A stretch of DNA of 64,000 nucleotides from a virus. The DNA lies in the IMG/VR virus record IMGVR_UViG_3300042691_020140, positions 12,100 through 76,099 of that record; one strand, written 5' to 3'. Made by a program: the position numbers and the translations under genes. The notes under the pieces are model-generated. The model searched no databases, had not been told where the DNA came from, and saw nothing but the letters and a program-made list of their open reading frames with translations. Position 1 is the first letter of the stretch. The number at the start of each line of letters is the position of its first letter. Below are positions 33,838 through 54,993 of this stretch, piece by piece.

Positions 33838-33850
33838 CACACACACACAA

Positions 33851-33884: not shown

Positions 33885-34326
33885 GTTGCTCATCCGTATC
33901 GAAATTGAAAATTGAAAATTGCAAAATTCAAAATTCAAAATTCAAAATACACGCACGATCGGGGATGCAGCGTAGCTTAACATAATTTTTTGGGGAGTCT
34001 GCGAGTCCCCCATTTTTTATGTCAACGTGGCCAACCCGCCCACCCCCGCCGTCCCCCAAGCCCAACCGCACGCGATTAGGGTTAAGCCCCTGACACTTTT
34101 TATGATAGGGCCAGAGAGCATTTGGAAAATTCAGAATTTGAAAATAAAATCTGAAATTTTTAGGGGACTCTACGAGTCCCCCATTTTTAAAGTCAGGGGT
34201 GTCCGGCAGTCCCCCAAAAACTCGTCAAAAATTGCTCAAAATTGCTATTGCATTTTAGTTTTAAGTGTGCTAAAATGAAAATATCAAAAAGTAATTCGAC
34301 TTTTTGACTTTTGCGGAGATTTTGCC

Positions 34327-34494
34327 ATGACTATGCTGATTTTGGGCGTGATGACGGTGTTTGTGATTCTTTTGGGCGCAGCTACTCTGATAATAGCTAA
34401 CGAGTACGGCGCAAGTCAGAAAATGGTTACGCTATGGTTGTGGGCGATTTTGTTGTGGGCGATTATGTGCAAAATCATAATTGACATTATCTAA
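34327..34494 (+). CDS. 55-aa two-TM membrane protein (cassette)
   Basis: Hand-translated MTMLILGVMTVFVILLG...; GCGGAG RBS; TTGCAT/TAAAAT promoter. Confidence 0.65.
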   Translation: MTMLILGVMTVFVILLGAATLIIANEYGASQKMVTLWLWAILLWAIMCKIIIDII

Positions 34495-34738
34495 AATCAA
34501 AACCCAAAATTTGGGGGAGTCGCAGCTCCCCCATTTTTTATGTAAATGAGTTTTTGGGGGAGTCGAAGAGTCCCCTATTATTTTTCAATTTTAGGGGTGT
34601 CCGGCAGTCCCCCAAAAATCAGCATCTGGCCTGGCTGCCGTCAAAATCTAAAAATTCGTTATTGACATTATTTTCAATCTGTGCTAAAATTCTTTTGTGG
34701 GGCTACTCTTGCCTTGCGTCTATAGCGGAGATTTTATT

Positions 34739-35032
34739 ATGTCAATCATTACGCCTGAAAACACAATCGCCGTCTTTACCGGCGAAATTGCCGGTATCAT
34801 CGTGTACACGGTAAAGCATTGGACCTTTGCCGAAATTGTCGCCCGTGTTTCTGAAAATGAGTTTTCGGAATACCGCACCGGCACAATGACCGCCATGCCG
34901 GACGATTTGTCGGTTATCGATTGGACGGTATACTACGCAGAATCGTGGCAGATGCAAGAAATACCGGTAAATAAATTTTTCGCCGAAAATAAAATTTACG
35001 CTACAAATCAATACAATGAAATAATTTTCTAA
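34739..35032 (+). CDS. Hypothetical cassette protein
   Basis: MSIITPEN; GCGGAG RBS; TTGACA-17-TAAAAT promoter at 34662-34690. Confidence 0.65.
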   Translation: MSIITPENTIAVFTGEIAGIIVYTVKHWTFAEIVARVSENEFSEYRTGTMTAMPDDLSVIDWTVYYAESWQMQEIPVNKFFAENKIYATNQYNEIIF

Positions 35033-35293
35033 AATTCAAAATTCAAATTTCAAAATTCAAATTTGGGGGAGCCACAGCTCCCCTAAAAATGTGTGGATTT
35101 TTGGGGGGCTCGAAGAGTCCCCCATTTTTGATAGATTTTAGGGGTGTCCCGCAGTCCCCCATTTTCTCTCATCTGGCTCTCATCTAATTCTCATCTAAAT
35201 CTATTGCTTTCGCAGCTGACATCTGCTAGAATACCCTCATAGGCTAATTTAATACGTGGGCTCGCCTATGCCCTATTTTCGGAGGCTACTCTT

Positions 35294-35614
35294 ATGTCAA
35301 GCGCAAATCTCTTGGTGACCGTGACCGTCCTGACCGCTTACGAGGCTAGCAGCAAGGTCCTGACTCTGACCGCCATTGACGAGGTCCTGTATGAGCATCG
35401 TCAGCTCATCGTGCCGGTTATCGATGCGGTCAAGGGTACGAAAGCGTACAACACCTTGCCGGTCTTGACTTTCGGTACTGTTATCGTAGTAGCGTCATGG
35501 CGTGATGAGTGCTATACGCTCAAGACCGATACCCATGCGATGTATAGCCACGTCGAAGAATTCTTTCAAGGTCTCTGCTACGACGAGGACGTGCGAAAGA
35601 TACGGGTAATCTAA
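35294..35614 (+). CDS. Hypothetical cassette protein
   Basis: GGAGG RBS, own promoter. Confidence 0.7.
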   Translation: MSSANLLVTVTVLTAYEASSKVLTLTAIDEVLYEHRQLIVPVIDAVKGTKAYNTLPVLTFGTVIVVASWRDECYTLKTDTHAMYSHVEEFFQGLCYDEDVRKIRVI

Positions 35615-35984
35615 AATAGCCCGAAAAATGGGGGAGTCGCAGCTCCCCTATTTTTTATGTCTACAATTTTTGGGGGACTGCGGGAGTCCCCTATTTTTAA
35701 TTTTGGGGGAGTCTTCGAGTCCCCTATTTTTTATGTCAATTTCTCCCTCCGTCCCGCCCCCGTCTCCCCCAAGCCCCCTATTCCTGCGACATCATCAAAC
35801 CCATCGCACTTATACACTAAGGGAGCTCGTGAGCATTTTTTGGGGGACTCCAGCAGTCCCCCAAATTTTTTTCTTTCTCATAATCTTCTCATCTAACTCT
35901 CATTTTCGCAGCGGTGTTTTTATGGTATTATATAAGTGTAGACAAAACCGGCGGACGAGCTACACCGCCACCCTGGGGGATGCC

Positions 35985-36278
35985 ATGAAGCATCAACGCA
36001 AACCGGTTAAGCCGATTTATGCCATCGTGTTTATCAACGAGGATGGCACCGGCGGTATGTATTTTGATGACTATCTGCATGTTGTCCGTGGACTGCACGG
36101 TATACGCAAAGATAGTCCTGAAATGAAGCTCGGTATCGTCAAGTTTGACCTGTATCGTCGCCGTGTATCGTTGCTCAAAGTGCATAATTATGGTATAGAT
36201 ACCATAGACGATACGCAACCATTTTGGACAAAAGAGACTATGGTAAAATTACTCTGCTTCACACCACCGACGTACTAA
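35985..36278 (+). CDS. Hypothetical cassette protein (MKHQRKPVKP...)
   Basis: 3' part of ORF 35628-36278; GGGGGA RBS. Confidence 0.6.
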   Translation: MKHQRKPVKPIYAIVFINEDGTGGMYFDDYLHVVRGLHGIRKDSPEMKLGIVKFDLYRRRVSLLKVHNYGIDTIDDTQPFWTKETMVKLLCFTPPTY

Positions 36279-36441
36279 AACGACCACAGAAATGGGGGAG
36301 CTACGGCTCCCCCATTTTTTATGTCTACAATTTTTGGGGGACTCGAAGAGTCCCCTATTTTCTAGTTTTAGGGGTGTCCCGCAGTCCCCCATTTTTTGCT
36401 ATGATTTTAGGGGAGCCGTAGCTCCCCCAAAACCGTGTCGG

Positions 36442-36609
36442 TTACATAGTACCGATTACTACGAACACAAACAACGCCCACATCAAAAGAAACGCCAAGT
36501 ACCCATGACGCACACGGCTATCCACATCGTACTCGATGACAATTGACCAGGACCACACGACGATACCCATGATTACGATAGTAGCCACACCCAAAGATGC
36601 CATCAACAT
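36442..36609 (-). CDS. 55-aa two-TM membrane protein in an inverted cassette
   Basis: Hand-translated MLMASLGVATIVIMGIVVW...; GAAAGG RBS; minus-strand TTGTAT/TATACT promoter and CTCTCAT boxes. Confidence 0.65.
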   Translation of the reverse strand: MLMASLGVATIVIMGIVVWSWSIVIEYDVDSRVRHGYLAFLLMWALFVFVVIGTM

Positions 36610-36871
36610 GTCCGTAGCCTTTCTGTTAACTTAATCCTCTTACAGTATACACTATGTCGGCTGCCGATACAAGGGATTTAGATGAGAGTTAGATGAGAGA
36701 AAAATGAGAGAAAATGGGGGACTCGGGCAGTCCCCCAAAAATCAAAAATCTAAAATTGAAAATTCAGAATTCATTAATCAAATTCTAATCTAAAATGCTT
36801 GTATTGTATACTTGCATATGGTACAATTCTAGTGTAATCAAATGATTACATGCTAGTAGCGGAGGTCGGCT

Positions 36872-37006
36872 ATGGTGTGCGATATTTGCGGCGGCGATGT
36901 TTCGAGCGACAACGTCCACGAGGAGTCCTGGTCGCCATTTTTCGTCTGTTGCTCAGAGTGCGGCGGCGCAGCTGAGGACGTGCTAGACGACGACAACGCC
37001 GAGTAG
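36872..37006 (+). CDS. 44-aa acidic Zn-ribbon miniprotein (cassette)
   Basis: MVCDICGG...CCSECGG; GGAGG RBS. Confidence 0.6.
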   Translation: MVCDICGGDVSSDNVHEESWSPFFVCCSECGGAAEDVLDDDNAE

Positions 37007-37267
37007 TACAATCAAGCGGAATGGGGGAGTTACGGCTCCCCCATTTTTTATGTCAATAAATTTTTGGGGGACTGTGGGAGTCCCCTATTTTTGATAGATT
37101 TTGGGGGTGTCCCACACTCCCCTAAAAATTTTAGGGGAGACCCAGCTCCCCCATTTTCTCTCATAATTCTCTCATCTAATTCTAATCTAATTTGCTTGCG
37201 TGTGACCTGGTTATAGTGTATACTAGTATTGTAATCAAATGATTACATCGCAGCGACGGAGGATGTC

Positions 37268-37483
37268 ATGGGTGAGTATACTGTAGTAGTGGTGAGTGCC
37301 ATCGAGGGTGTCGTGTGGGTGCGTGAGAGTGTGACGATAGCACATCCTCACATGGTAGACGCTGTCAAGATTGCCTACGAGGAATCACTTGCATCTGAGT
37401 GTCAGTGCGTTGTGCATGTGTATCGCAATCGTCACTTGCAGCGGTCAATAACGATTAGTCATCCTGAGTTAGAAAAAGAGTAA
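37268..37483 (+). CDS. Hypothetical cassette protein
   Basis: GGAGG RBS, own promoter. Confidence 0.65.
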   Translation: MGEYTVVVVSAIEGVVWVRESVTIAHPHMVDAVKIAYEESLASECQCVVHVYRNRHLQRSITISHPELEKE

Positions 37484-37889
37484 GAAAATGGGGGAGTCGC
37501 AGCTCCCCCAAATTCTAAAAATGGGGGAGTCCCAGCTCCCCTATTTTTTATGTCTATTAAATTTTAGGGGACTGCGGGAGTCCCCTATTTTTAATTTTGG
37601 GGGAGTCTTCGAGTCCCCTATTTTTTATGTCAATTCCTCCCTCCTACCCCAACCCCCCGCAAGCCCCCCTAGCGTTGGATAACGTGAACGCCCTAGCACT
37701 TATACACTAAGGGAGCTTCAGAGCATTTTAGGGGACTCTTCGACTCCCCCATTTTTTGCAATTTTTGGGGGAGCTGCACTTCCCCTATTTTCTCTCATCT
37801 TTCTCTAATCTAAATTACTACTATTCGCAGCGAACATAGTGTATAATACTATTGTAATCAGATGATTACACGATAGCTAAGGAGACGGT

Positions 37890-38117
37890 ATGTATACTCT
37901 CAAAGTGGATGGCTACACGCTCGGTCAATGGAACACGATAGCAGAAGTGGAAGTTATTTTCAACGTGTTACCGTTAATGCTCAACAAAATGACCGCCGGT
38001 GATGGCTACTTTGCCGGTATCTATGCGGCGGACAATTCTTTGGTCAAGTGGGATACGATACACGCCCCTAAGACCAACGACGACGACGCAGAAGATTTGA
38101 TGCTCGAATTCAACTAA
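37890..38117 (+). CDS. Hypothetical cassette protein
   Basis: AAGGAG RBS, TATAAT -10. Confidence 0.65.
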   Translation: MYTLKVDGYTLGQWNTIAEVEVIFNVLPLMLNKMTAGDGYFAGIYAADNSLVKWDTIHAPKTNDDDAEDLMLEFN

Positions 38118-38333
38118 GCACGGCAAGAATGGGGGAGTCGCAGCTCCCCCATTTTTTATGTCTACAAAATTTTGGGGGAGTCGAAGAGTCCCCTAAAAAC
38201 TTAGGGGTGTCCGGCAGTCCCCCATTTTAGCTGCACAGATTACTCATAATTCTCTCATCATTTACTCATACTATTGCGTATGAATGTAGTGTATACTTAG
38301 TATTGTAAGTTAGCTTAGATATGGAGGTTACCG

Positions 38334-38522
38334 ATGGCGACGGCACAAGTTAAGCGCATCCGCATAGATGGGGTGCATGTATCAATGTGGCGGTATGGTA
38401 GCAAAGAATGGTCATTCACCATCTACGGACCTCGTGAGACGCAAGAGCTGTTGGTTAAGCGTATGGACTATTGGAAAGCTTACCGTACTGCTAAATTGAT
38501 GATTAACCTCTATCACAAGTAG
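38334..38522 (+). CDS. Hypothetical basic cassette protein
   Basis: GGAGG RBS, TTGCGT/TATACT promoter. Confidence 0.65.
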   Translation: MATAQVKRIRIDGVHVSMWRYGSKEWSFTIYGPRETQELLVKRMDYWKAYRTAKLMINLYHK

Positions 38523-38763
38523 TACACCGGCGGTTTTTTAGGGGAGCTACAACTCCCCTATTTTTTATGTCTATCAAATTTGGGGGTCTCGAAGAGTCCC
38601 CTAAAAATTTAGGGGTGTCCCGCAGTCCCCCAAAAATCAAAAATACAAAATCGAAAATTGAAAATTCATTAATCTAATTTTAATCTAAAATGCTTGCATC
38701 TGCTATATACACATGTTATAATGACTATGTAATCAAATGATTACACGATATACGGAGGCTACG

Positions 38764-39042
38764 ATGTACAACGTTACAATTCACGGCGACTGTCGCACTA
38801 GCGACGATGGTTCGGGCTACTCATTCGTATTCGACTTTCAAGAGGAACGCCTCGGTATGACTTGGGTCGTCGCCGGTATGAAAATTCGTGAAACTATGAC
38901 GTGGCAAGAAATTCCTAGCGGATCCGTCGTCAACGTGGAAATGCGTGTGTGGACGTTGGAAAAAGGCACTATCGCTAGCGTGCCTGGCAAGATGATAAAA
39001 TTGCCGAACGGTGAAAAATCGTACCTAGAATTAATCGGCTAG
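38764..39042 (+). CDS. Hypothetical cassette protein
   Basis: GGAGG RBS, TTGCAT/TATAAT promoter. Confidence 0.65.
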   Translation: MYNVTIHGDCRTSDDGSGYSFVFDFQEERLGMTWVVAGMKIRETMTWQEIPSGSVVNVEMRVWTLEKGTIASVPGKMIKLPNGEKSYLELIG

Positions 39043-39207
39043 GTATCAAAGAAAATGGGGGAGTCGCAGCTCCCCTATTTTTTGTGGTCGTCGTTTTTGG
39101 GGGAGTCGAAGAGTCCCCCATTTTTTCTCATCTTTCTCTAATGTTGGCTGCAAGTTTTTCATGGTACAATACTTGTGTAGGGTCAATCTTGACCCGTGGA
39201 GGATGTC

Positions 39208-39453
39208 ATGAACCGCCAAAAATTCGCTCAGTTCCTAGAGGACACCCGTTGCCACTTGTCCGGCAAGGCACACAATCTGACCGACCACCGGCTAGGTGAA
39301 ATCGACCGGATGCTCGACAATGCCCACAATCTGATTTTCGCCAACGATGCCGGTTATTCTCGGGCGGACATGGACACCGCCGTTGCTATGGTTCGGTATG
39401 TCCGTCGCCGTCTTGACCCGTTGCCGTGGGTAACTCTCGACGACATAATGTAA
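39208..39453 (+). CDS. Hypothetical cassette protein
   Basis: GGAGG RBS. Confidence 0.65.
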   Translation: MNRQKFAQFLEDTRCHLSGKAHNLTDHRLGEIDRMLDNAHNLIFANDAGYSRADMDTAVAMVRYVRRRLDPLPWVTLDDIM

Positions 39454-39624
39454 TCTAGGTACTTTTGGGGGAGCTACGGCTCCCCTAAAAGATGTGAAAT
39501 TTTTGGGGGACTCTTCGAGTCCCCTATTTTTCCTCATCGTTCTCTAATGTTGGGGCTTTCGCCCTATGATATAATACAAATAGGTCAAGTTGACCCTAGC
39601 ACTTATCAGTATAAGGAGCATAAG

Positions 39625-39867
39625 ATGTATCAGGTAGTTATCGAATTCCGTGATGCGTACATTGAGACTGAGATGGAAAAGTTGACAGATTTGCGTGACA
39701 TAATATCAGAGACTATTCCGAATTATATTCAGTATGCTGAGCTGTATCTCGGCGAGCCCGTCCGTAAGGCACACGCTACAATATCGTCTAATGGTGTACT
39801 TATCGGCGTTAAGTTGTTTTCATTCTATCGTCAAAAGTTATCTGAAAAGTTGGAGGTCTTCATCTAG
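39625..39867 (+). CDS. Hypothetical cassette protein
   Basis: AAGGAG RBS. Confidence 0.65.
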   Translation: MYQVVIEFRDAYIETEMEKLTDLRDIISETIPNYIQYAELYLGEPVRKAHATISSNGVLIGVKLFSFYRQKLSEKLEVFI

Positions 39868-40102
39868 TGATTACCCTACCCCTAATGGTTGCAGCTATCC
39901 TACTGGTAGTAGTACTCGATACTAAATAGTCCCTAGACCCTCGCTAGTAGCTAGCGGGGGTCTTTTATTGTCAAGTAGATTTGGGGGTCTCTTCGAGTCC
40001 CCTATTTTCTCTCATCTAGCTCTAATCTAATTCGTGCATAGACGTGTGATATGTTTGTTATAATAAGTATGTAAGTTAGTTTAGTAGACAGGATGGTAAC
40101 AG

Positions 40103-40459
40103 ATGCGAATACGCAAGCCAAAGTACTATTACGTGATTCTGAATGAGCAACGTGCTAACGTTGACAGTAGCGTAGAGGCGTATGAGGATTTTTCAGAGCG
40201 TGTAAAAAGTGTGCCTATTCTTGTGTGGAAACGCACGCCGTTTACTATTGAGCAGCTTAGCCGTCTCGAGTGTGAATTAAACGGTATTGATATGTGGCAA
40301 TTTACGCAAATTGACGAGAATTTTTACGGCAATGAATTGCCACGTCATATCCATCAAAAGTGGCAATACGGCGAATATATCAGAGAAGAGGAAAAATTCC
40401 GTAAGGCGGTACGCAAGCAATTAGCAGACTATAAGAAAAAACATCCTATAGTCAAATAA
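40103..40459 (+). CDS. Hypothetical cassette protein
   Basis: 118 aa, own TATAAT promoter. Confidence 0.65.
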   Translation: MRIRKPKYYYVILNEQRANVDSSVEAYEDFSERVKSVPILVWKRTPFTIEQLSRLECELNGIDMWQFTQIDENFYGNELPRHIHQKWQYGEYIREEEKFRKAVRKQLADYKKKHPIVK

Positions 40460-40635
40460 TCACCGGCGGTATTTTTGGGGGAGCTAAGGCTCCCCTAAAA
40501 AATTACGAAAAAATTGGGGGACTCTTCGAGCCCCCTAAAATCCAAAATCTAAAATTCAATTTTCTAATCTTGCTCTCATAATTATGTACTATAATACAAA
40601 TAGGTCAAATTGACCATATGGAAAGGCGAACGGCG

Positions 40636-40977
40636 ATGAAGATGATACTAATCTATGTACAGGATGAGCATGACATTTTTAATCTTGTGTATAGCACACA
40701 CAATGACACAATGCCGGACGAAACAATACACGATATTGCACGCACACACGCACGGCACGCATGTACTGAGAATCGTTGGGATTGGACTATGATACGTATT
40801 GTTAAGGCACACGTCTCGCCGTCCACGCAAGAATTACCTACATTGTCAGTAACATTCATGATAGACGTTGAATATACGCTAGATTACAGCGACGGCGAGG
40901 AAACAATGGAATTAGCAGACTACATAAAACAAGTACGGCGTGATTATTCAGACGGTATAGGTAATCCATTTAAGTAA
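40636..40977 (+). CDS. Hypothetical cassette protein
   Basis: GAAAGG RBS. Confidence 0.65.
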   Translation: MKMILIYVQDEHDIFNLVYSTHNDTMPDETIHDIARTHARHACTENRWDWTMIRIVKAHVSPSTQELPTLSVTFMIDVEYTLDYSDGEETMELADYIKQVRRDYSDGIGNPFK

Positions 40978-41131
40978 ATATCGGCGGAATTTAGGGGAGT
41001 CGCAGCTCCCCTAAAAAATTACTCAAAATTTAGGGGACTCTTCGAGCCCCCCATTTTCTCTCATCTGGCTCTCATAATTATTGTTTATAATACAGATAGG
41101 TCAAAATTGACCACACAGAAAGGCGGACGGT

Positions 41132-41338
41132 ATGAAAATTGCACAAATGCTACTGAATGACGCATCATTCACGCAACAGGATGTCGAGGAATTCTACGCA
41201 GACTACCAACCAACCGAGCAAGATATTGCCGACATGCAACGTGGATGGGACGAGATTGAGACCAACTTGTCAGAGGTCGATTATGTCGAGCAATTCGAGA
41301 ACGCCCTGCTCTATGGTGATGGCGATTTGCCGTGGTAA
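41132..41338 (+). CDS. Very acidic 68-aa cassette protein
   Basis: Many D/E, only 1 K and 1 R; GAAAGG RBS. Confidence 0.65.
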   Translation: MKIAQMLLNDASFTQQDVEEFYADYQPTEQDIADMQRGWDEIETNLSEVDYVEQFENALLYGDGDLPW

Positions 41339-41488
41339 TCTAACCGCCGGACTTTTGGGGGAGCTGCGGCTCCCCTAAAAAATTTGCAAATTTGGGGGGC
41401 TCGAAGAGTCCCCCATTTTTTTTCTCATCTGGCTCTCATAATTATCGTGTATACTATAAATGGTTAGATAACAGTATAGGAGGTTAGC

Positions 41489-41749
41489 ATGTTTGGTATG
41501 ATGGATTTGGTAAGTTTGGCAAAAGATGCGATTGTAGGCATTAATCAATTAGGGACGTATGGCGAGCGACGTTATGAGGCAAATACGCCTGAGGCTATCA
41601 TGGCTATTCACCACTTTTTTGAGAATCGTATGTTTGGCGGTTATGCTACGGTATACCTGACGTGTGGATGTCAGTACATGTTCAACGCCCGTGATAGTCT
41701 GACTAGTGAAAGCTTGTGCGAGGGTCACGCAGAAACATTAGACATGTAA
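41489..41749 (+). CDS. Hypothetical cassette protein
   Basis: AGGAGG RBS. Confidence 0.65.
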   Translation: MFGMMDLVSLAKDAIVGINQLGTYGERRYEANTPEAIMAIHHFFENRMFGGYATVYLTCGCQYMFNARDSLTSESLCEGHAETLDM

Positions 41750-41907
41750 ACGACCACGATTTTTGGGGGAGCTGCGGCTCCCCTAAAAAATATGCAAAAT
41801 TTGGGGGACTCTTCGAGACCCCCATTTTCTCTCATCTGATTCTTATCTAATTAGCTTTTTGCTATGATATAATTACAGTGTAGTCAAGTTATACGGAGGT
41901 AGCACTT

Positions 41908-42195: not shown

Positions 42196-42321
42196 CTCCA
42201 ACCCCACGTCGTTTTTGGGGGACTCGAAGAGACCCCCATTTTCTCTAATCTGGTTCTCATAAATGTGTTGTATAATAAGAATGTAGTCAAGTTGTGGCTA
42301 CTTACATGATGGAGGTTTGAG

Positions 42322-42738
42322 ATGGGATTAGACATGTACGCATGGGCAGTGCCGACCGAGATTCGTGATGGTTTGTTGGGCGAGGATGGTTTCGATTTGG
42401 ATGCCGTGGATTTGTCAGCAGCGGGCGTTAACACCGATTTGGCGTATTGGCGAAAACATCATCACTTGCACGGATGGATGCAACGCCTGTATGCTGAAAA
42501 GACCGGCAACGAGGACGAGTCAGCGTTTAATTGTGTGTATGTGGAATTGACCGCCGATGATTTGGACCGATTAGAAGAGGCAATTACCAACGATGAATTA
42601 ACACCGACCGAGGGATTTTTCTTTGGCAGTCATACTGATATTTGCGACGACGACCGAGAGTCTGACTTGAAGTTTTTAGTAGACGCACGAGAAGCAATCG
42701 CAGACGGCTATCACGTACTCTATCATTCATGGTGGTAG
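42322..42738 (+). CDS. Conserved phage hypothetical protein (MGLDMY...YWRK...FNC...GFFFG type), acidic
   Basis: Recognisable motif pattern; GGAGG RBS. Confidence 0.7.
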   Translation: MGLDMYAWAVPTEIRDGLLGEDGFDLDAVDLSAAGVNTDLAYWRKHHHLHGWMQRLYAEKTGNEDESAFNCVYVELTADDLDRLEEAITNDELTPTEGFFFGSHTDICDDDRESDLKFLVDAREAIADGYHVLYHSWW

Positions 42739-42941
42739 ATTAGAGTAGGATAAGAACCGCTCTCATAATCGGGGGCGGTTTCTTATTGTCAAGTGGAAAT
42801 GGGGGAGTCGAAGAGCCCCCCATTTTTAGATTAATAGAAAATTAAAATTCAAAATTCAGAATTCAAAATTCAATTTTCATATTGACACCGGCTAGAATCT
42901 AGTGTACAATATAGATGTAAGTTAGATAGAGAGGATTTTAC

Positions 42942-43145
42942 ATGGCATCTTTTGACCGGTCCGTAGATTCACGCAAGTTTGGGGCAGAGATTGAGTATTA
43001 TGAGTATCATCTACTCGCATCCGTTGACGATGGTACTTTTAATGCAAAAGACGCATTACGCATCAAAGACCGTCTTGACCAATTGTTGGAAGTTATCGGC
43101 GTACTTGTAAGTGAGGAGCTAGACCATGACCAAAGTGACGATTAA
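42942..43145 (+). CDS. Hypothetical cassette protein
   Basis: TTGACA-17-TACAAT promoter; GAGG RBS. Confidence 0.6.
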   Translation: MASFDRSVDSRKFGAEIEYYEYHLLASVDDGTFNAKDALRIKDRLDQLLEVIGVLVSEELDHDQSDD

Positions 43146-43428
43146 ACCTGCCGTGTATGATGATAAGATTTATGACTATAAGGAAGTTTCACCGCTTGAC
43201 TTTGTGGATGGTACAGAGGATAATTATCGCTCGCTATGTGCTAACTATGCTATCAAGTATCTTAAGAAGCGTGGCCTGCGTAGTGCGATGTTCCAATTTT
43301 GGATTATCATGGATGAGACAGGTGAGCTGCTAGATGTAGTAGAATATACTTACATGATTGACCGAGCCACGTATAACAAAACCGATGTTTCTTGCCCATC
43401 CTCGTGTATGTTTCATCCCGACCGATAG
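43126..43428 (+). CDS. Hypothetical protein with a C-terminus matching part of the Gp88-like gene
   Basis: Ends VSCPSSCMFHP, as in 45773-46477. Confidence 0.6.
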   Translation: MTKVTIKPAVYDDKIYDYKEVSPLDFVDGTEDNYRSLCANYAIKYLKKRGLRSAMFQFWIIMDETGELLDVVEYTYMIDRATYNKTDVSCPSSCMFHPDR

Positions 43429-43609
43429 CGTAGAAATCCCCAAAGAGTAAAATCGGCGGGGATTTTTATTGTCAAGTAAAAATAGGGGACTCTTCGAGCC
43501 CCCCAACTTCTCTCATTTTTCTCTCATCATTCTCTAACGTTACGGCGTATGTGGTATGCTATAATAAAGATGGTTAGGAAAGCAGTAGTAATAACGAAAG
43601 GTCAAGACA

Positions 43610-44209
43610 ATGAGCAAGAAACATGTGGTGCGTGAGATGGATTTCGGTTTCAAGACTGACGTGCAATTGATTTGTGCCGTCACCGGTGCGAGTGCTGACA
43701 AAGTGACAAAGCCACTTGCGTACCTGTCTGAGGCTAGTGAAGCAGAATTGTCACAATGGTTTACGCCTACGCAAATCACACGCCTCAAGTCTGCTTTTGA
43801 GCTGTCTAAGCGTCGTGCCGTATCGTTGCCCACGCAAATCCGTGCCCCTGCTGATGCAGCTACGTACCTGATGGCTAACTATCAAGACAAGATGCAAGAG
43901 CATTTTATCGTGTTGTGTCTGAATACGAAAAATCGCATCATCTCGACGGTAGAATTGTACAAAGGTGCATTGAACACTAGCGTAGTACGCACCGGCGAAG
44001 TATTCCGTGAGGCTATCAAAGTTAACGCATGTGCTATCATCATCGCACATAATCATCCGAGTGGTGATATTACGCCGTCTGCTGAGGATGTCAGTACTAC
44101 CCGAGATATTGCAAGTGCCGGTAAATTGTTAGACATCGATTTACTAGACCACTTGATTATCGGGCATGGTCAATGGACTAGTCTGCGTGAGCGTGGCTTA
44201 GGATTCTAG
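43610..44209 (+). CDS. radC: RadC family JAB-domain protein
   Basis: QEHFIVLCLNTKN, AHNHPSGD..PS.ED, LLDHLIIG. Confidence 0.92.
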   Translation: MSKKHVVREMDFGFKTDVQLICAVTGASADKVTKPLAYLSEASEAELSQWFTPTQITRLKSAFELSKRRAVSLPTQIRAPADAATYLMANYQDKMQEHFIVLCLNTKNRIISTVELYKGALNTSVVRTGEVFREAIKVNACAIIIAHNHPSGDITPSAEDVSTTRDIASAGKLLDIDLLDHLIIGHGQWTSLRERGLGF

Positions 44210-44376
44210 ACCACGCCGGTTTTTGGGGGAGCTACGGCTCCCCTAAAAATTTCGGCAAAGTTGGGGGGCTCGAAGAGTCCCCCATTTTCTCTCATCATTC
44301 TCTCATACTATTCTGTTTGTAGACATGCTATACTATAAATGGTTAGGAAAGCAGTAGCAGTAATAAGGAGACAAAC

Positions 44377-44568
44377 ATGAAGCAGGTACAGGACATGGAG
44401 CAGACCATTAATCGCAAGGTTATCAATCCGTTTAAGACGATTTTGGACCTTATGACGATGGGGCACTCGTATCGTGACGGCGCAATCATGCGTGTGATGC
44501 TCGCCGGTTATCTCATCAACTGGTTAGAGGGGTATCGCCGATACTGGGATAGCCAAATCGGGCGGTAA
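44377..44568 (+). CDS. Hypothetical cassette protein
   Basis: AAGGAG RBS. Confidence 0.6.
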   Translation: MKQVQDMEQTINRKVINPFKTILDLMTMGHSYRDGAIMRVMLAGYLINWLEGYRRYWDSQIGR

Positions 44569-44723
44569 ATTCCACAGGATTTGGGGGAGCTGCGGCTCCC
44601 CTAAATTCATCGCCAAAAATGGGGGGCTCGAAGAGTCCCCCAAATCCTCTCATTATTCTCTAATGTAGCACACACTTTTTGTATGCTATACTATAGATGT
44701 AAGTTAGTTAGATAGGAGATTTT

Positions 44724-44939
44724 ATGAAGGCTAAACTTCGTATCGGTGATGATGGTCGGTTAGAAAGATACTACGCTACACATTGTCAGACATGTGGGAT
44801 TGAGCAACGTCACTTGCGTGCGTTTGGCTTCCCACTAAAGTTTTATGACTTTTATCACTACTGCTTCTTCGATGGTCACAGAGGTACTAAACATATTTGC
44901 AAAGTGTGTGAACACAAGTATTCGCAATATCAGCCATAG
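44724..44939 (+). CDS. Small Zn-finger-like cassette protein
   Basis: CQTC...CKVC; AGGAG RBS. Confidence 0.6.
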   Translation: MKAKLRIGDDGRLERYYATHCQTCGIEQRHLRAFGFPLKFYDFYHYCFFDGHRGTKHICKVCEHKYSQYQP

Positions 44940-44949
44940 GAGTTACAGA

Positions 44950-45153
44950 ATGAGTACAAGATTTCGTATAGGGCGTGAATTGTTTGTGGTGGAATCTCCT
45001 AGCAAAAAATGGATAGTACTAATTGTGCTTGAAGTACCGAACAAAGGATGGGTAGTTAATATTACTAGGGATATGGAAATTGTGGAATCTCAATATTGGT
45101 TTGACTCTCAAGAGCAAGCCGGCGAATTCGCCGAGAAGTGGATGCCCACGTAG
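44950..45153 (+). CDS. Hypothetical protein
   Basis: AGGAG RBS before MSTRFRIG. Confidence 0.6.
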   Translation: MSTRFRIGRELFVVESPSKKWIVLIVLEVPNKGWVVNITRDMEIVESQYWFDSQEQAGEFAEKWMPT

Positions 45154-45309
45154 TCTTTGAGGCTTAAATCAATACCCGATGCAGCTTAGGCTACGTCGGG
45201 TACGATTTTTAGGGGACTCTTCGAGCCCCCCAATTTCTCTCATCTTTCTCTAATGTTTCTAAGCATATACGCATGGTATACTAAGTATGTAAGTTAGTTA
45301 TAGGAGGTA

Positions 45310-45561
45310 GTGATGATTAGCGTTTTGATTGTCGGTGGTGACCGCTCGAGCATGGTAGACGGTTTGGCGTATGACTTGCATAAGGGTATCATTTTCTTGC
45401 GATTCAAGACGACGCAAAAATGGTACGCAAAGCATGTCGGTTTGGAATACATCATGGAAGCTATTGACGTGTGGATGGATGAGAATCAGTCATTTGGCAA
45501 GTGGGCAAATCAGAATCACATTACTAAGAATATGACATTTTTTAGTGATGTAGACCTGTAA
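45310..45561 (+). CDS. KTSC-like domain protein
   Basis: SSMVDGLAYD...LRFKT...SFGKWAN.HI. Confidence 0.55.
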   Translation: MMISVLIVGGDRSSMVDGLAYDLHKGIIFLRFKTTQKWYAKHVGLEYIMEAIDVWMDENQSFGKWANQNHITKNMTFFSDVDL

Positions 45562-45772
45562 GCACCACGGAGTTTTGGGGGAGCTGCGGCTCCCCTAAAA
45601 TTTTTGTCGATTTTTGGGGGACTCTTCGAGACCCCCATTTTCCTACCCGAGCTGCCAGCTGGCCCACGGCCACTCTCATCTGTCTCTCATTTAATTCTAA
45701 GCACTTATTAATATAGGGCGGTCGTGAGCATGTTATACTATGAATGTAAGTTAATTATATGTGAGGTGTGAG

Positions 45773-46477
45773 ATGCGTTTTGTAGTAGCTTCAAAAAATG
45801 ACAAATTGTCCCGTGGTAAAAATGTCATTGCCACGTATAGCCGGACCGGTGTTTCTTGTCCGTCGTCGTGTATGTTTCATCCCGAGCCCGATGCGTATGC
45901 CGTTGAGAAGCGTAATGCTTTCGGACGTGTCACAACGTGCTACACGTTGAAAGGCAACACACGCTATCATCAAAAGAGTCTTACATCTATCGATGCTCTT
46001 AAGGTGCGTGTAAGTGTTAAGAAGTTTCTTGATTTACGTAATGCTAAACGTGGTAAAGGTGTCACGCAAGCTAAACGTATTGATACAATCCGGTGGAATG
46101 TGTCCGGCGATGTTTTTGACGGCAATCTACCTAACGTTGAGTATATTGACGCAATTGTTTGGGCGTGTCAACAATTAGATAACGCAGGCATTAAATCGTT
46201 AGGTTATACACACGGATGGCACTTGCCTGAATTGCAAGCCCTTAAACAATGGTTTATGGCTTCATGTGATACAAAAGAAGAGGTATTGCAAGCTCAAGAG
46301 ATGGGATGGATGACCGCCCTCGTTATCGGCGATAATACAGACGTTAGCGGTCTTAAAATCGGTAAGTGTCCAAATCAGCTGACAAAAGGCAAAATTAAAT
46401 GTGATGAGTGTATGCTATGCTCGCCCTCAAGCTTGCCAAAGTTTAGCTCTCGTGTGGTAGGTTTAAGCTATCACTAG
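45773..46477 (+). CDS. Gp88-like Cys-rich phage protein
   Basis: SCPSSC, CYTLKG, RWNVSGD, GYTH, ASCD, CPNQ..C..C.LC. Confidence 0.65.
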   Translation: MRFVVASKNDKLSRGKNVIATYSRTGVSCPSSCMFHPEPDAYAVEKRNAFGRVTTCYTLKGNTRYHQKSLTSIDALKVRVSVKKFLDLRNAKRGKGVTQAKRIDTIRWNVSGDVFDGNLPNVEYIDAIVWACQQLDNAGIKSLGYTHGWHLPELQALKQWFMASCDTKEEVLQAQEMGWMTALVIGDNTDVSGLKIGKCPNQLTKGKIKCDECMLCSPSSLPKFSSRVVGLSYH

Positions 46478-46792
46478 ACGGTATATCCTCGTGATACCCC
46501 TAACGCCAGTTAGGGGTATTTTTATTGTCAAGTGGAATTGGGGGGCTCGAAGAGTCCCCTAAAACTACGGATCTACTCTATTTTATACTACAATAGATAG
46601 TAGTAAATTATTCAAAAGTAGAAAAGAAAAATTCTCAAAAATTCAAAATTCAAAATCCAAAATCTAAAATTCAAATCTCAAACTTCGCTGCACTTGTACA
46701 CTAAGGGACTTAAGGAGCATTGGAATTTTTTAGATCCGTAATTTAGGCACAGAAAAGCCCCAGACTTGGGGCCGTTCTGTAAAATTCAAATT

Positions 46793-47038
46793 CTAATCTT
46801 CGCTTACGTAGATTGAGCCTACCTTTTTAAACGTACTAGGATTATATTCCTTACCGACATCCCATGTAGCGTATTGCTTCTCAATCATGGTAATAAGTAC
46901 GTATGTGTATAACTCCGGCGGGGTTTCTTTTCGGAACATCTCCGCCCTACGTTCTGCATAGTAAGAAGAGCTACAACGACTGTACCAATACCGTTTATAA
47001 TCGGGCCCGATAATCCAAATGTTAAATTCAAACTTCAC
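46793..47038 (-). CDS. Hypothetical protein
   Basis: 81 aa, GAGG RBS. Confidence 0.55.
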   Translation of the reverse strand: MKFEFNIWIIGPDYKRYWYSRCSSSYYAERRAEMFRKETPPELYTYVLITMIEKQYATWDVGKEYNPSTFKKVGSIYVSED

Positions 47039-47039
47039 T

Positions 47040-47663
47040 CTAGTATTCCTCCTCTTTACTTCGGTATTCCTCTAATAAGTCATGAATAGCAAACTCAATC
47101 CCCTTAGCGATAACTGTACGACAGATGTTAGATACTAAGTCTGTTGTGTTGACCGCCTTAACAGCATGGCTCTCTAACTCAAGTGCATCGAATGATTCTA
47201 CACCTGCATATAAGTGCGGCATATATACACCGCCGAGTAATCTATGCAGTAGAATCTTACGCTGTCCCTCTGTAATACACTCCCAGACAGACATGAATCT
47301 AAGCTCTGCAAATTCGTACACTAGGTCAACATCAAGCCATTCACGCTGATTATCGTTTCGCCACCGTAATCGCTTAGATAAGTTGTGTAAGAATTCATAG
47401 GCGATACCCTGTAAGTTTCTTGGCGTAAACTCTACACAGTACATATTAGCATCTGTAATAACAAACTTAATACCCAAGTCACCAAACGCATTAGCAAATG
47501 ACTCCAACTCACGGACAAAGAACGCCTTGTTAGCTTTCTCTACAACTGAAGCGTTGTAGTAAGGACAAACTTTGATAGAATACTTAGCGTCTGAAATCCA
47601 AGTCTCCCTCTGAATACAAAACTTCTGCAAATCCAAAATTGAAAATTCAAAATTCACTTCCAT
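47040..47663 (-). CDS. Hypothetical protein
   Basis: 207 aa, AGGAGG RBS. Confidence 0.65.
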   Translation of the reverse strand: MEVNFEFSILDLQKFCIQRETWISDAKYSIKVCPYYNASVVEKANKAFFVRELESFANAFGDLGIKFVITDANMYCVEFTPRNLQGIAYEFLHNLSKRLRWRNDNQREWLDVDLVYEFAELRFMSVWECITEGQRKILLHRLLGGVYMPHLYAGVESFDALELESHAVKAVNTTDLVSNICRTVIAKGIEFAIHDLLEEYRSKEEEY

Positions 47664-47848
47664 AACTACCTCCTATAAATCTCGACTACACGTTTAGTAT
47701 AGCACAGATAATCACCAGATTACATTAGAGCCACGTTAGAATTAATAGGGGACTCTTCGATACCCCCATTCTCTCTCTCATCTAATTCTAATGTTGACAT
47801 TTCTAATGTATGCTATAATACAAATGGGTTAAGTTTTAGTAGGAGTTA

Positions 47849-48697
47849 GTGATGATTACTAAGTTTGTGTTCACCTCAAATGGTGCGGGCGGGATGAATG
47901 TTGTCGTCAATGGTGAGAATGTCGGTGCTATGTACCCTGATACGACTGGCATGTACGAGCTTTATCAAATCACCGATGTTGACACCGAAAACGAGAGTTT
48001 GAAAGTCAGCTACAACGCTATTGATTTGCGTAAGCGTATGACTACTAAACAGGCTGTCGAAGAAATGCTTAAGTGGAACACTGGACGGCATATGTTAGAT
48101 AGTGGCGGTTATGGTAATCGTGGATGGGAGCGTTTGCAGGGCGTTGATTTAATGGCACGTCCTGAAGCTGTTATCGATGAACATGGTTATACGCAAGACT
48201 TGTTTCACTACCTGATTGAGCGTGTACACTTCTGTCAAGAAGCACAAGAATACTTCGATAAGGTGGACGCTGAGAATCCTGACTTGTCATATGCTGAGAT
48301 TCTTAAGAAGCTCTATGATGAAGATGTGATTATCCACAACTGCTCGGGCTTGACTGCTAATGAAGATAATACCCTGTCACAGGACTTCATTTGGCATAGC
48401 GTAGAAGTCAAGTTGCCACAGTGGGATGATTATGAGACTATGACTATTATTCAATCGCACAATGGTGCAGATATTCGGGGCGGTTATTCTAAGCCATTCT
48501 TCTTTATGACTGAGTACGAAAACATCTTGTTAGATATTAATCGTGCTTGTGTATACTGTGATAGCTGTCATACTAACTGGTACAGTGATGATGGTTCTAA
48601 CACATGGGAGAGTGATGACGATGGGGCGTGTGATTGGACTAACAACTGGAATGGCACAAACTTTGTATGTGCATGTGGCGGAGTAATTAAGGCATGA
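47849..48697 (+). CDS. Conserved phage hypothetical protein
   Basis: NTGRHMLDSGG, HNGADIRGGYS, C-terminal Cys; TTGACA/TATAAT promoter. Confidence 0.7.
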   Translation: MMITKFVFTSNGAGGMNVVVNGENVGAMYPDTTGMYELYQITDVDTENESLKVSYNAIDLRKRMTTKQAVEEMLKWNTGRHMLDSGGYGNRGWERLQGVDLMARPEAVIDEHGYTQDLFHYLIERVHFCQEAQEYFDKVDAENPDLSYAEILKKLYDEDVIIHNCSGLTANEDNTLSQDFIWHSVEVKLPQWDDYETMTIIQSHNGADIRGGYSKPFFFMTEYENILLDINRACVYCDSCHTNWYSDDGSNTWESDDDGACDWTNNWNGTNFVCACGGVIKA

Positions 48698-49050
48698 AAA
48701 TCACGGAATATGTAGCGAAGCTAGTAGACGGTCGTATTGACGGATGGTATCTCGAAAATCCCTATGTAGTGCTTCGCTACATAGGGTATGAGGGGGAAGA
48801 CCAAGACCCTTTTATTATGGAGACTGACTGGTATAGCATGGCTTGGTGTGCGTTGATTCAAATTTTGCCCGACGATGTTATTGTTAATATCATGTGCGAG
48901 CCTAACTGGTTTATGAAAGCTGCACACCAAAAGTACTATGAAGTGGTAGCAGAGGTTGAATTAATCTCTGGCGTGTGTTATAATGTAGATGTGTTCGATG
49001 GTGATATTATTCTAGTGAAGAAAGGTGATGTAGATGAATGTACCGATTAA
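48694..49050 (+). CDS. Hypothetical protein
   Basis: ATGA coupling. Confidence 0.6.
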   Translation: MKITEYVAKLVDGRIDGWYLENPYVVLRYIGYEGEDQDPFIMETDWYSMAWCALIQILPDDVIVNIMCEPNWFMKAAHQKYYEVVAEVELISGVCYNVDVFDGDIILVKKGDVDECTD

Positions 49051-49336
49051 CGTGTCAGCAATGACAAAGACAGAGCGCAAAGCTCTAATCAAGATTTTGC
49101 AGGGCAATTTCACAGACCGTCTGATTATCCAACTTGGTGATACTATGGTGACTGCTCACGGTTGGGAGTACGCCGAGAATCCATCATGGTACACTCTGTA
49201 CTACAAAGACAAGATGGTACACCAAGACGCTACGTTGGATGAGTTGTTTGATACCGATAACTATATCACGAACGTGGATGATGATGAATTAGATGCAATT
49301 CGAAAATGGTTTGATACATTCCAACCTGAATGGTAA
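49034..49336 (+). CDS. Hypothetical protein
   Basis: Operonic. Confidence 0.6.
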   Translation: MNVPINVSAMTKTERKALIKILQGNFTDRLIIQLGDTMVTAHGWEYAENPSWYTLYYKDKMVHQDATLDELFDTDNYITNVDDDELDAIRKWFDTFQPEW

Positions 49337-49509
49337 GCAGTGGCCCTCGGTGCTAGCATCGGGGGCCATCTCTTTGGCTTAGAAAATAGGGGAGTCGAAG
49401 AGTCCCCCATTCTCACTCATCAAATTCTCATTTTACTTTTGCCTAAAGTAGTGTATAATAAAGATGTTAGCAAATGACTAACACAGATTCGATTAGAGGA
49501 GTTAGACAG

Positions 49510-49959
49510 ATGGACATCAAGCAGTTTATTCAGGAGATGCAGGCGTTCGAGCGTACACTTAACAACGTGTACGACGAGATTGATTCAAGCGTGGTAGACA
49601 GTTTGGAAAACGAGATTGACGGATTGCGTGATTCTCTCCGTGACATCGAGAGTACTGTCAGCGATTGGTCAAATCAGCTTGACGAGGTGCGTGACGAATT
49701 CAACGCCCTCAAAGGGATGGTCAATGACATCGAGGATGAGCCGGTCAAGACTGAGATTGTGCTTATGTCAGATTGGCAGATGCAACAAAAGAAGACCTTT
49801 GTCCGCAACAACTTGCGTAACACAGAGCTTCTGACATCAATGCTCAAAGCAGACCCACAATCATTTTGGGTGACTATCGCTACCTGTATCGTAGAAGACC
49901 CATTCCATTGTTCGGACCTCGCTGATTTTGTGGTGAATTATGAGCAGTACATTAAGTGA
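49510..49959 (+). CDS. Acidic coiled-coil protein
   Basis: Heptad pattern, D/E rich; GAGGAG RBS. Confidence 0.65.
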   Translation: MDIKQFIQEMQAFERTLNNVYDEIDSSVVDSLENEIDGLRDSLRDIESTVSDWSNQLDEVRDEFNALKGMVNDIEDEPVKTEIVLMSDWQMQQKKTFVRNNLRNTELLTSMLKADPQSFWVTIATCIVEDPFHCSDLADFVVNYEQYIK

Positions 49960-50221
49960 TTTGGTGCTGAGCTATCGTGGGACCCCTACCCTTTGTGTGG
50001 TAGGGGACTCCCTCCCACGGGAGCAATGGCTATGGAAGAATTACAGTTTCTTGTCTAAGTTTGCTACGCCTGTCGGGCCACTACCCGAGAATGAAGCTAA
50101 CTTCACAGACAATCTAGCGTTTGTCGTACACGAAATGTTTTGGGATGTCAATGCACAGTTAGAGAAGTATAAGTTGCAGCTAGAATATGCCGGCGGTAAT
50201 CTTTATCTAGTCCGTATGTAG
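49940..50221 (+). CDS. Hypothetical protein
   Basis: Operonic, ends at terminator. Confidence 0.55.
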   Translation: MSSTLSDLVLSYRGTPTLCVVGDSLPREQWLWKNYSFLSKFATPVGPLPENEANFTDNLAFVVHEMFWDVNAQLEKYKLQLEYAGGNLYLVRM

Positions 50222-50365
50222 GCCCGAAGCATCCCTAGAAATAGGGGTGCTTCTTTTTGGTGCAAATATTAGGGGACTCTTCGAGTCCCCCATTTCTTAC
50301 GTCAAGCTGCACCGGCCAACAAAAAACCCCTCCCTTTGTGGGGGAGGGGCTTGGGTAGGGCTAGC

Positions 50366-54992: not shown

Positions 54993-54993
54993 T

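Follow-up and report, generated by a model that had tools for sequence, protein, structure and literature searches.

A 16-kb phage array of insulated small-gene cassettes with lineage-specific palindromes, probably an extreme form of the promoter/stem-loop design

We analyzed a 64,000-nucleotide stretch of viral DNA (the window), which comprises bases 12100-76099 of the 76,099-bp IMG/VR virus record IMGVR_UViG_3300042691_020140 (genome G000) and contains a 16-kb block of small genes separated by GGGG...CCCC palindromes. The block is probably a hyperplastic accessory-gene region of about 27 insulated modules, exchanged by RecA-type recombination, of the promoter-early stem-loop (PeSL) type. PeSL cassettes and the promoter-middle stem-loop (PmSL) cassettes are known from T4-type myoviruses (Arbiol et al. 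2010, PMC2839356; Comeau et al. 2014, PMC4122927).

Organization of the array

The pattern GGGG-N10-CCCC had 32 matches in the window and GGGG-N11-CCCC had 70 overlapping matches, against 0.2-0.3 expected from shuffled sequences. After overlaps were collapsed, 61 distinct GGGG-N9-12-CCCC palindromes were counted at window 33992-50291 (about 16.3 kb), and the rest of the 76,099-bp genome contained a single G4...C4 palindrome, at 11977 (61 of 62 in the array). They were classified as type B (GGGG-NN-TC-NNN-GA-NN-CCCC, 28 copies, only four of them perfect palindromes), type A (GGGGAG-N6-CTCCCC, 19 copies), type C (GGGGTGTCCsGCAGTCCCC, seven copies that hardly form a hairpin, about -6 kcal/mol) and seven others. 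The subtypes cluster by position, and the number of palindromes falls along the array, from 34 in the first 10 spacers to 23 in the next 14 and four in the last four, in parallel with gene novelty. A scan of 33-52 kb against Rfam gave sub-threshold chance matches only.

The array consists of 27 transcription units, 25 on the plus and two on the minus strand, with about 36 open reading frames (ORFs), most of which have no Pfam or PHROG family. For these genes the role in host takeover or anti-defense proposed by the original prediction would be speculative. Behind a stop codon, a spacer has in turn a terminator hairpin, a type B palindrome (sometimes also type C), 2-5 CTCTCAT-type boxes, an extended -10 element, a leader palindrome and a strong ribosome-binding site (RBS), which is followed by the one to three small ORFs of the unit. 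The terminator hairpin is either type A or a unique ordinary hairpin followed by TTATTGTCAAGT, and the leader palindromes come from a few families (GTAATCAAATGATTAC, GGTCAAnTTGACC, GTAAGTTAG and others). Every unit has its own predicted extended -10 promoter. The hexamer TCTCAT is enriched (64 observed, 37 +/- 6 expected), and 37 of the 64 sites lie at 35167-49431, many of them spaced exactly 11 bp apart. About 20 of the 25 plus-strand units have such phased boxes in place of a -35 element, and about five use an (AAAATTC)n run with a TTGACA -35 and without boxes.

The repetition is not limited to the palindromes, as whole spacers are direct repeats of 45-140 nt with 60-95% identity. Each spacer would be one copy of a composite module of 60-150 bp, in which a lineage-specific G4...C4 palindrome follows the terminator hairpin, the boxes replace the -35 and the leader palindrome lies at the 5' end of the transcript. 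The composite motif typical of PeSLs (a stem-loop, a sigma70-like promoter, a Shine-Dalgarno (SD) sequence and ATG) is present in the array, and its copies are concentrated in this hyperplastic block of small ORFans. The block is presumably expressed early, by the RNA polymerase of the host.

The original prediction for this DNA, made from the letters alone, had described about 60 GGGG-N10/11-CCCC palindromes delimiting about 30 cassettes, a strict order of elements and a falling number of palindromes per spacer. The palindrome count agreed with ours, the order was seen in nearly every spacer, and the polarity was confirmed by the counts above; the array of self-contained units also stood, but their number had to be corrected to 27. 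The features of the array are as follows (window coordinates; A, B and C denote palindrome types).

33036..33521, plus strand: gene of an HNH endonuclease at the array head, 27% identical to its positional counterpart in G001, a related genome described below
33992..50291, plus strand: whole array, 27 units, about 36 ORFs, 61 palindromes
33838..34494, plus strand: unit 1; B 33992, B 34163, C 34196; C-rich 100-nt element 34020-34115; -10 34271; ORF 34327-34494 (plus), a 55-aa membrane ORF common to G001
34495..35032, plus strand: unit 2; A 34513, B 34556, C 34594; TTGACA 34662, -10 34685; ORF 34739-35032
35033..35614, plus strand: unit 3; AAAATTC run; A 35065, B 35103, C 35141; TCTCAT boxes 35167/35178/35189; -10 35227; ORF 35294-35614 (plus)
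35615..36278, plus strand: unit 4; palindromes 35630, 35672, 35705, 35842; C-rich/GCACTTATACACTAAGGGAG element 35735-35840; boxes 35876-35903; -10 35926; ORF 35985-36278 (plus)
36279..36409, plus strand: terminator block of unit 4; A 36294, B 36336, C 36371
36410..36736, minus strand: unit 5, a complete inverted cassette; reverse-complement type A 36410; ORF 36442-36609 (minus); reversed boxes 36682-36709; palindrome 36716-36736
36737..37006, plus strand: unit 6; AT run; -10 36822; leader palindrome GTAATCAAATGATTAC; ORF 36872-37006 (44 aa)
37007..37483, plus strand: unit 7; palindromes 37023, 37066, 37103, 37134; boxes; -10 37219; ORF 37268-37483
37484..38117, plus strand: unit 8; six palindromes (37490, 37523, 37567, 37599, 37731, 37767); C-rich element 37630-37730; -10 37842; ORF 37890-38117 (plus)
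38118..38522, plus strand: unit 9; palindromes 38131, 38174, 38204; boxes; -10 38292; ORF 38334-38522
38523..39042, plus strand: unit 10; palindromes 38541, 38582, 38612; AT run; -10 38717; ORF 38764-39042, common to G001
39043..39453, plus strand: unit 11; A 39057, B 39099; -10 39165; leader GGGTCAATCTTGACCC; ORF 39208-39453
39454..39929, plus strand: unit 12; A 39467, B 39505; -10 39570; ORFs 39625-39867 and 39867-39929 (20-aa hydrophobic)
39930..40459, plus strand: unit 13; ordinary terminator 39935-39963, then TTATTGTCAAGT; B 39983; -10 40059; ORF 40103-40459
40460..40977, plus strand: unit 14; A 40477, B 40516; -10 40590; ORF 40636-40977
40978..41338, plus strand: unit 15; A 40994, B 41033; boxes 41059/41070; -10 41086; ORF 41132-41338 (66% identity to G001)
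41339..41749, plus strand: unit 16; A 41357, B 41394; -10 41450; ORF 41489-41749
41750..42195, plus strand: unit 17; A 41765, B 41803; -10 41868; ORF 41908-42195
42196..42738, plus strand: unit 18; B 42217; -10 42271; ORF 42322-42738 (138 aa, phrog_7971)
42739..43428, plus strand: unit 19; ordinary terminator; B 42801; AAAATTC run; TTGACA 42882; -10 42905; ORFs 42942-43145 and 43126-43428 (plus), the last 70 nt copying the 5' part of the gp88-like gene
43429..44209, plus strand: unit 20; ordinary terminator; B 43485; -10 43560; RadC-like JAB gene 43610-44209
44210..44568, plus strand: unit 21; A 44225, B 44263; -10 44329; ORF 44377-44568
44569..45153, plus strand: unit 22; A 44583, B 44621; -10 44687; ORFs 44724-44939 and 44950-45153
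45154..45561, plus strand: unit 23; B 45212; -10 45277; ORF 45313-45561
45562..46477, plus strand: unit 24; A 45577, B 45616; -10 45734; DUF7227/GP88-like gene 45773-46477
46478..46792, no strand: convergent spacer; terminator 46493-46520; B 46540; AT run; GCACTTGTACACTAAGGGA motif 46690; minus-strand terminator 46756-46773
46793..47663, minus strand: unit 25; ORFs 46793-47038 and 47040-47663 (F05, fast-evolving, no known fold); -10 47696-47701
47748..47767, no strand: single palindrome between divergent promoters, 56.5 bp from each -10 hexamer
47768..49336, plus strand: unit 26; boxes; -10 47814; ORFs 47852-48697, 48694-49050 and 49034-49336
49337..50221, plus strand: unit 27; ordinary hairpin; B 49389; -10 49454; ORFs 49510-49959 and 49940-50221
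50222..50365, no strand: array end; terminator 50226-50253; last B 50272-50291; bidirectional terminator 50324-50352

Several other repeats accompany the promoters. Runs of the heptamers AAAATTC/AAAATTG (A-tracts with a 7-bp period) occur upstream of promoters that retain a -35 and at some gene ends, at 33900-33950, 35035-35060, 36740-36780, 38640-38670, 42840-42880, 46630-46680, 47620-47660 and 51300-51340; they may be UP-element-like or bent DNA. Two more TCTCAT boxes with 11-bp spacing lie outside the array (window 50926-50942) and are followed by a (TATA/CATA)n low-complexity stretch at 50950-51005. A plus-strand element of about 100 nt recurs four to five times, only in or beside the array (window 34020-34115, 35735-35840, 37630-37730, 46690-46730 and 51005-51050), and consists of a C-rich stretch (CTCCCTCC..CCCC..CAAGCCCC) followed by GCACTT(A/G)TACACTAAGGGAGCT..GAGCATTTT; related motifs (CACT.GT..TACTAGGCCCTCGAGAGTTTCC) are present in two relatives, L141 and L142. 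The motif GCACTTATACACTAAGGGAG was considered as a T3/T7-like promoter on account of its similar core and was rejected, as there are only 4-5 copies and no single-subunit RNA polymerase was recognized. Hairpin promoters of the N4 type (stems of 5-7 bp), which have similar 3-nt loops, appear doubtful: no giant virion RNA polymerase gene was found, the largest ORF (1791 aa) having no Pfam match, and clear sigma70-type -10 elements follow every palindrome.

Palindrome exchange and cassette turnover among relatives

The array was compared with that of G001, a syntenic 77.8-kb relative with 65-80% nucleotide identity to G000, and with further relatives (L137/L138, G003, L139-L143 and G002) recovered through the DUF7227/GP88-like gene; G000 and G001 were both rated 100% complete. 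Five related lineages use a common grammar, with the same boxes, extended -10 and leader families, and the palindrome differs in each. G001 contains none of the G000 palindromes and instead has 24 copies of GGGGGTC-nnn-GACCCCC, all within its array, together with lone half sites. The palindrome is GGGGGGTCTsAGACCCCCC in L137/L138 and GGGGG[TC][AT]GGGGG-w-CCCCC..CCCCC in G003 and L139-L143, and the G002 motif, GGGGGTAGGGGGTGCCCC, is barely palindromic and conserved as a 12-mer. This exchange has taken place in situ at four of four orthologous spacers (RadC|F15, F15|F02, F02|gp88 and gp88|F03), where promoter and leader align among G000, G001 and L137 and the palindrome is the lineage's own.

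Two observations concern other repeats in these arrays. The end of the G001 contig falls inside its array, within about 12 tandem copies of CCTTGACC (L012 1-104, the start of the contig), which contain GGTCAAGG, resembling a reverse half-site; the assembly probably broke in this repeat. Six copies of a perfect 16-bp palindrome, TGTTTCACGTGAAACA, precede the G002 array (reverse complement 53650-55280, L148-L151), and a further copy is found in L142 (840-855); it looks like an operator and is an element distinct from the G/C palindromes.

Gene order is colinear between G000 and G001, and eight consecutive G000 genes at 34.7-38.7 kb had no homolog in G001. The part common to all lineages is the distal end, from the gp88-like gene to 50.3 kb, with one palindrome per spacer. 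Between genes 44377 and 45313 there are 18 bp without a spacer in G001, one spacer in L137, and a spacer, two genes and another spacer in G000; this cassette (unit 22) is missing at the corresponding place in G001 and L137, and the G000 spacers that flank it resemble each other down to the leader. In a second clade, the gene F35, which stands behind a tRNA-like gene in L142 and G003, has given way to an unrelated gene, F38, in L141 and L143, with the same flanks and with the right junction of the replacement at a palindrome/box border. The tRNA-like gene itself, ending ...GGTTCGATTC..CTCCACCA (L141 1130-1270; L142 4735-4870; G003 reverse complement 1790-1925), lies inside the second-clade arrays and forms the left border of this replacement. 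In the second clade the 45313 homolog has been translocated to the downstream side of the 49940 homolog, and the homolog of 50366 is inverted, lying on the other strand. The 44724 homolog (67% aa identity) lies 4.7 kb farther upstream in G002, and one complete cassette is inverted within G000 (36410-36736).

The original prediction had proposed that genes are exchanged by recombination between the repeats. Alignment of the relatives revealed cassette gain, loss, replacement, translocation and inversion, and at the breakpoints examined these insertions, deletions, replacements and displacements are bounded by spacer modules. The turnover events match the kinds reported for PeSLs. Because the module recurs before every gene, it could act as portable homology, by which the phage RecA-type system would add, delete, replace, move or invert whole cassettes and leave their neighbors undisturbed, as in the PeSL mechanism. 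Each palindrome is a direct and inverted repeat of its other copies and could therefore support both deletion and inversion.

Several points weigh against this interpretation. The location of breakpoints in spacers discriminates weakly, because almost every gene is flanked by a spacer, and most events are old, their exact crossovers being blurred because the relatives are 55-80% identical. Illegitimate events occur as well, as shown by a G000-specific recombination scar within a coding region: gene 43126-43428 ends in a stretch of about 70 nt (43366-43428) that shares 85% identity with the 5' coding sequence of the gp88-like gene (45840-45900), covers its CPSSCMFHP motif and is followed by a 1-nt gap and a stop. 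We infer from sequence that the units are early, that their terminators and promoters are active and that homologous recombination drives the exchange.

With respect to the genome as a whole, the two ends of G000 share a 69-bp overlap, and the assembly is therefore circular. Its genes include class II ribonucleotide reductase, a large terminase with an intein, portal, DNA methyltransferases, a Bmp/PnrA lipoprotein, PolA, DnaB, a glycosyltransferase, ThyX, RecA, a PD-(D/E)XK nuclease and a Mre11-like phosphoesterase. Searches of GenBank phages by blastn with the array and with a 5.5-kb core block gave no match, the best protein match of PolA among GenBank phage records is less than 28% identical, and near-identical DNA was found in 20 sequencing runs from 16 studies, mostly freshwater. 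G000 is an uncultured freshwater phage lineage unrelated to T4-type myoviruses. The intein lies in the terminase gene at window 22272-24875 (Intein_splicing match, residues 83-417). The nearest bacterial relatives of the Bmp/PnrA-like lipoprotein gene (window 29317-30471) are Chloroflexota metagenome-assembled genomes (Chloroflexaceae, Roseiflexaceae and Anaerolineae) with at most 58% aa identity, a weak hint at Chloroflexota as the host phylum.

Role of the palindromes and the recombination genes

Type A appears to behave as an RNA terminator hairpin. By hand count, eight of its 19 copies contain a T.G pair (G.U in the sense RNA), compared with one C.A; the loops are often UNCG-like, and copies in the first half of the array have U tracts, those in the second half a TAAAAA tail. 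The same explanation could be extended to all palindromes, which would then be only intrinsic terminators or insulators whose lineage-specific sequence spreads by gene conversion, with a stem free to drift and no specific reader. In agreement with this, 66 terminator-like sites were found where 13 +/- 4 were expected, T-rich tails follow 21 of the 28 type B and nine of the 19 type A copies, folding energies range from -9 to -18 kcal/mol, and PeSL stem-loops are proven terminators in RB49 (PMC2839356). The positional clustering of subtypes also fits, as do A/B chimeric arms such as GGGGAGTCGAAGAGTCCCC, which suggest conversion between adjacent hairpins.

However, the U tract of intrinsic terminators follows type A of the first half and most type B copies, but not type A of the second half, most G001 copies or the palindromes at divergent junctions. 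In G001, fewer than five T occur within the 9 nt behind 18 of the 24 palindromes, and those copies that were read come after a unique terminator that is separate from them. The G001 arms are identical in 24 of 24 copies with seven different loops, whereas conversion tracts should homogenize the loops too. Type B positions 1-4, 7-8, 12-13 and 16-19 are invariant in 28 of 28 copies, and positions 5/15 and 6/14 vary without compensatory change (30 Watson-Crick pairs, five G.T and 21 mismatches), with G.T as frequent as A.C (5:5). The G002 motif is conserved although it barely forms a hairpin. Finally, at the divergent junction of F05 (minus) and F06 (plus), six genomes carry a single palindrome of their own lineage between outward-facing extended -10 promoters, with distances to the two -10 elements of 56.5/56.5 bp in G000, 63/64 bp in G001 and 56-59/71-73 bp in the second clade; no transcript would be expected to end there. 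We consider an explanation by termination only rather unlikely.

Two further observations bear on the role of type B and its G001 counterpart. The type B loop is TTC in 13 copies and GAA in 13, and the flanks are not inverted with it. The distance from the palindrome center to the -10 is periodic at 10.25-11 bp in G000 and G001 (Rayleigh R 0.64-0.74, p <= 2e-4). Invariant arms, uncompensated variation, occurrence in both orientations, phasing and the position between divergent promoters together favor a promoter-coupled role at the DNA level. Type B and its counterparts may be double-stranded DNA sites read sequence-specifically by a lineage-specific, promoter-tied factor, and not mere terminators, a view that we hold tentatively. 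Certain facts speak against it: the helical phasing could merely follow from spacers built of 11-bp boxes, type B may also terminate because 21 of its 28 copies have a T-rich tail, and no HTH_3, OmpR-type winged helix or sigma region 4 domain was recognizable in three genomes. A host operator was considered as well and rejected, since none of the 301 Chloroflexota genomes sampled contained palindrome B.

A more specific form of this idea, which we consider unlikely, is that a phage protein which co-evolves with the lineage palindrome recognizes it, gates all accessory promoters and nicks or pairs the palindromes. Candidates would be the HNH protein at the array head, so divergent between G000 and G001 while the flanking genome is 65-80% identical (nucleotide), or a fast-evolving core ORFan such as F05. 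If it were true, cassette exchange and inversion would be targeted and not a by-product of general recombination, and the question that Arbiol et al. left open for PeSL stems would be answered. F05 is 20-25% identical between palindrome lineages, whereas its neighbors are 69-75% identical, and its family has eight cluster representatives among 1.84 billion. It was considered as a Rep_trans-like nickase on ESM Atlas feature scores of 0.81-0.83 only, with no Pfam or PDB sequence match. Its AlphaFold2 model (predicted local distance difference test score 89) gave nothing at E <= 1e-3 with Foldseek, the best VIA-wide match having Z 4.3, and the lead was dropped because the confident model fits no known fold. 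For F06 (281 aa), ESM Atlas gave nothing usable.

Besides the HNH gene immediately upstream of the array, G000 has recombination genes elsewhere outside it, which adjoin one another:

58446-59432, minus strand: Mre11/SbcD-like phosphoesterase
59772-60515, minus strand: PD-(D/E)XK nuclease (Cas4-like)
60842-61810, minus strand: RecA, also present in G001 and G002

Profile searches for tyrosine recombinases (PF00589), serine recombinases (PF00239) and Y1 HUH enzymes (PF01797) found none in G000 or G001, while control genomes were positive. General homologous recombination between modules, which has also been proposed for PeSLs, is the simplest engine, since no site-specific recombinase was found and RecA and nucleases are present. 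RecA, PD-(D/E)XK and HNH genes had been noted in the original prediction and all three were found; its remark that the window shows no integron integrase held for both complete genomes, and its integron-like reading did not, given this null result, cassettes with their own promoters, and repeats that are whole regulatory modules. Such a system, in which a dedicated enzyme acts on hairpins or cruciforms and moves cassettes as circles, would agree with lineage-specific palindromes of invariant arms, with asymmetric variants in both orientations in un-inverted flanks, with the complete inverted cassette bounded by palindromes and with the highly divergent HNH at the array head in G000 and G001, and the same idea was raised by Arbiol et al. 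for GGGG...CCCC stems (PMC2839356). A host Y1 enzyme acting in trans on the palindromes would be compatible with the PF01797 result, which covered G000 and G001. Nevertheless, F05 is the sole protein with a weak Rep_trans hint and its confident model lacks the matching fold, and crossovers occur at no fixed base: the F35/F38 junction falls where palindrome and boxes meet, whereas the 44377/45313 locus shows duplication or deletion of entire spacers. We consider an integron-like system very improbable, and an array of PeSL-type modules is preferred because RecA and its companions are present and tyrosine, serine and Y1-HUH recombinases are not.

The least probable explanation is that the palindromes are selfish miniature mobile elements, similar to repetitive extragenic palindromic (REP) sequences or miniature inverted-repeat transposable elements, a different one in each lineage, and bystanders in regulation. 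A different palindrome at equivalent places in each lineage, both orientations, up to six copies in variable spacers and the lone half sites of G001 could be seen in this way. However, no REP-associated tyrosine transposase (RAYT)/Y1 transposase was found in G000 or G001, no empty orthologous sites were seen, as every lineage has a palindrome at the homologous position, and the position is phase-locked to the -10. Pattern scans of IMG/VR found no other contig with many copies of either the G000 or the G001 palindrome, and the 301 Chloroflexota genomes sampled contained none. A separate scan for AGGGGGTAGGGGGT gave single chance matches among the matches listed.

Comparison with known systems

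Stoperators of Cluster A mycobacteriophages are many copies of a short lineage-specific site in intergenic gaps near stop codons and promoters, which co-vary with the phage regulator. The present palindromes are likewise multi-copy, lineage-specific intergenic sites near stop codons and promoters, but they are palindromic and G/C-clamped, no repressor or helix-turn-helix protein is recognizable, and no lysogeny genes are apparent. With REP sequences and bacterial interspersed mosaic elements they share short GC-rich imperfect palindromes after stop codons, single or clustered, in both orientations and specific to the genome; in contrast, there is no RAYT here, their position upstream of promoters is fixed and helically phased, and they are confined to one 16-kb phage block. 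Integrons (IntI, attI and attC) also have small unrelated genes separated by imperfect palindromes, with content variable at one end. However, the array has no IntI/tyrosine recombinase, its cassettes have their own promoters and terminators instead of a common Pc promoter, and its 19-bp palindromes lie in long regulatory modules, whereas attC sites measure 57-141 bp and have extrahelical bases.

The closest match is the PeSL, as the original prediction had suggested, with composite modules of a stem-loop and an early-type promoter repeated through a block of small ORFans. Both systems place a stem-loop, often GGGG...CCCC, immediately before a promoter of the host type that has AT-rich DNA upstream and SD and ATG behind it. 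Both repeat this module throughout a hyperplastic region of small ORFans, show insertions, deletions, replacements and displacements between relatives at the modules, and occur in phages with a RecA-family recombinase of their own. Each lineage has its own stem sequence here, and the PeSL definition includes GGGG...CCCC stems that differ between phage pairs (PMC2839356, PMC4122927). As in PmSLs, the -35 is replaced, by an activator box there and by phased boxes here. Further hallmarks of PeSLs are termination at the stem-loop and an active promoter (reporter assays) and recombination between neighboring modules to minicircles or deletions, which for the present array would be predictions.

The differences from PeSLs are also clear. 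In the papers found (PMC2839356, PMC4122927) the cassettes are described only for T4-type myoviruses, whereas the array is one contiguous 16-kb block in an unrelated 76-kb phage, with up to six palindromes per spacer, 11-bp-phased CTCTCAT boxes replacing the -35 in most units, leader palindromes, and a palindrome that is uncoupled from termination in G001 and central between divergent promoters. New with respect to PeSLs are thus the unrelated phage lineage, the box-type promoters, the in-situ exchange of lineage-specific palindromes and the signs of reading at the DNA level. Comparison of the relatives extends the PeSL picture in two ways: all spacers of a lineage have had their palindrome exchanged, with the promoters remaining orthologous, and some lineages have a palindrome that is detached from termination and linked instead to the geometry of the promoter. 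Both favor sequence-specific reading. If this reading is true, such arrays would offer addressable, self-insulated platforms on which accessory genes are exchanged, and could supply compact promoter/terminator parts. In summary, the array would represent the PeSL design in an extreme and very regular form, in a freshwater phage lineage unrelated to those in which the design was described.

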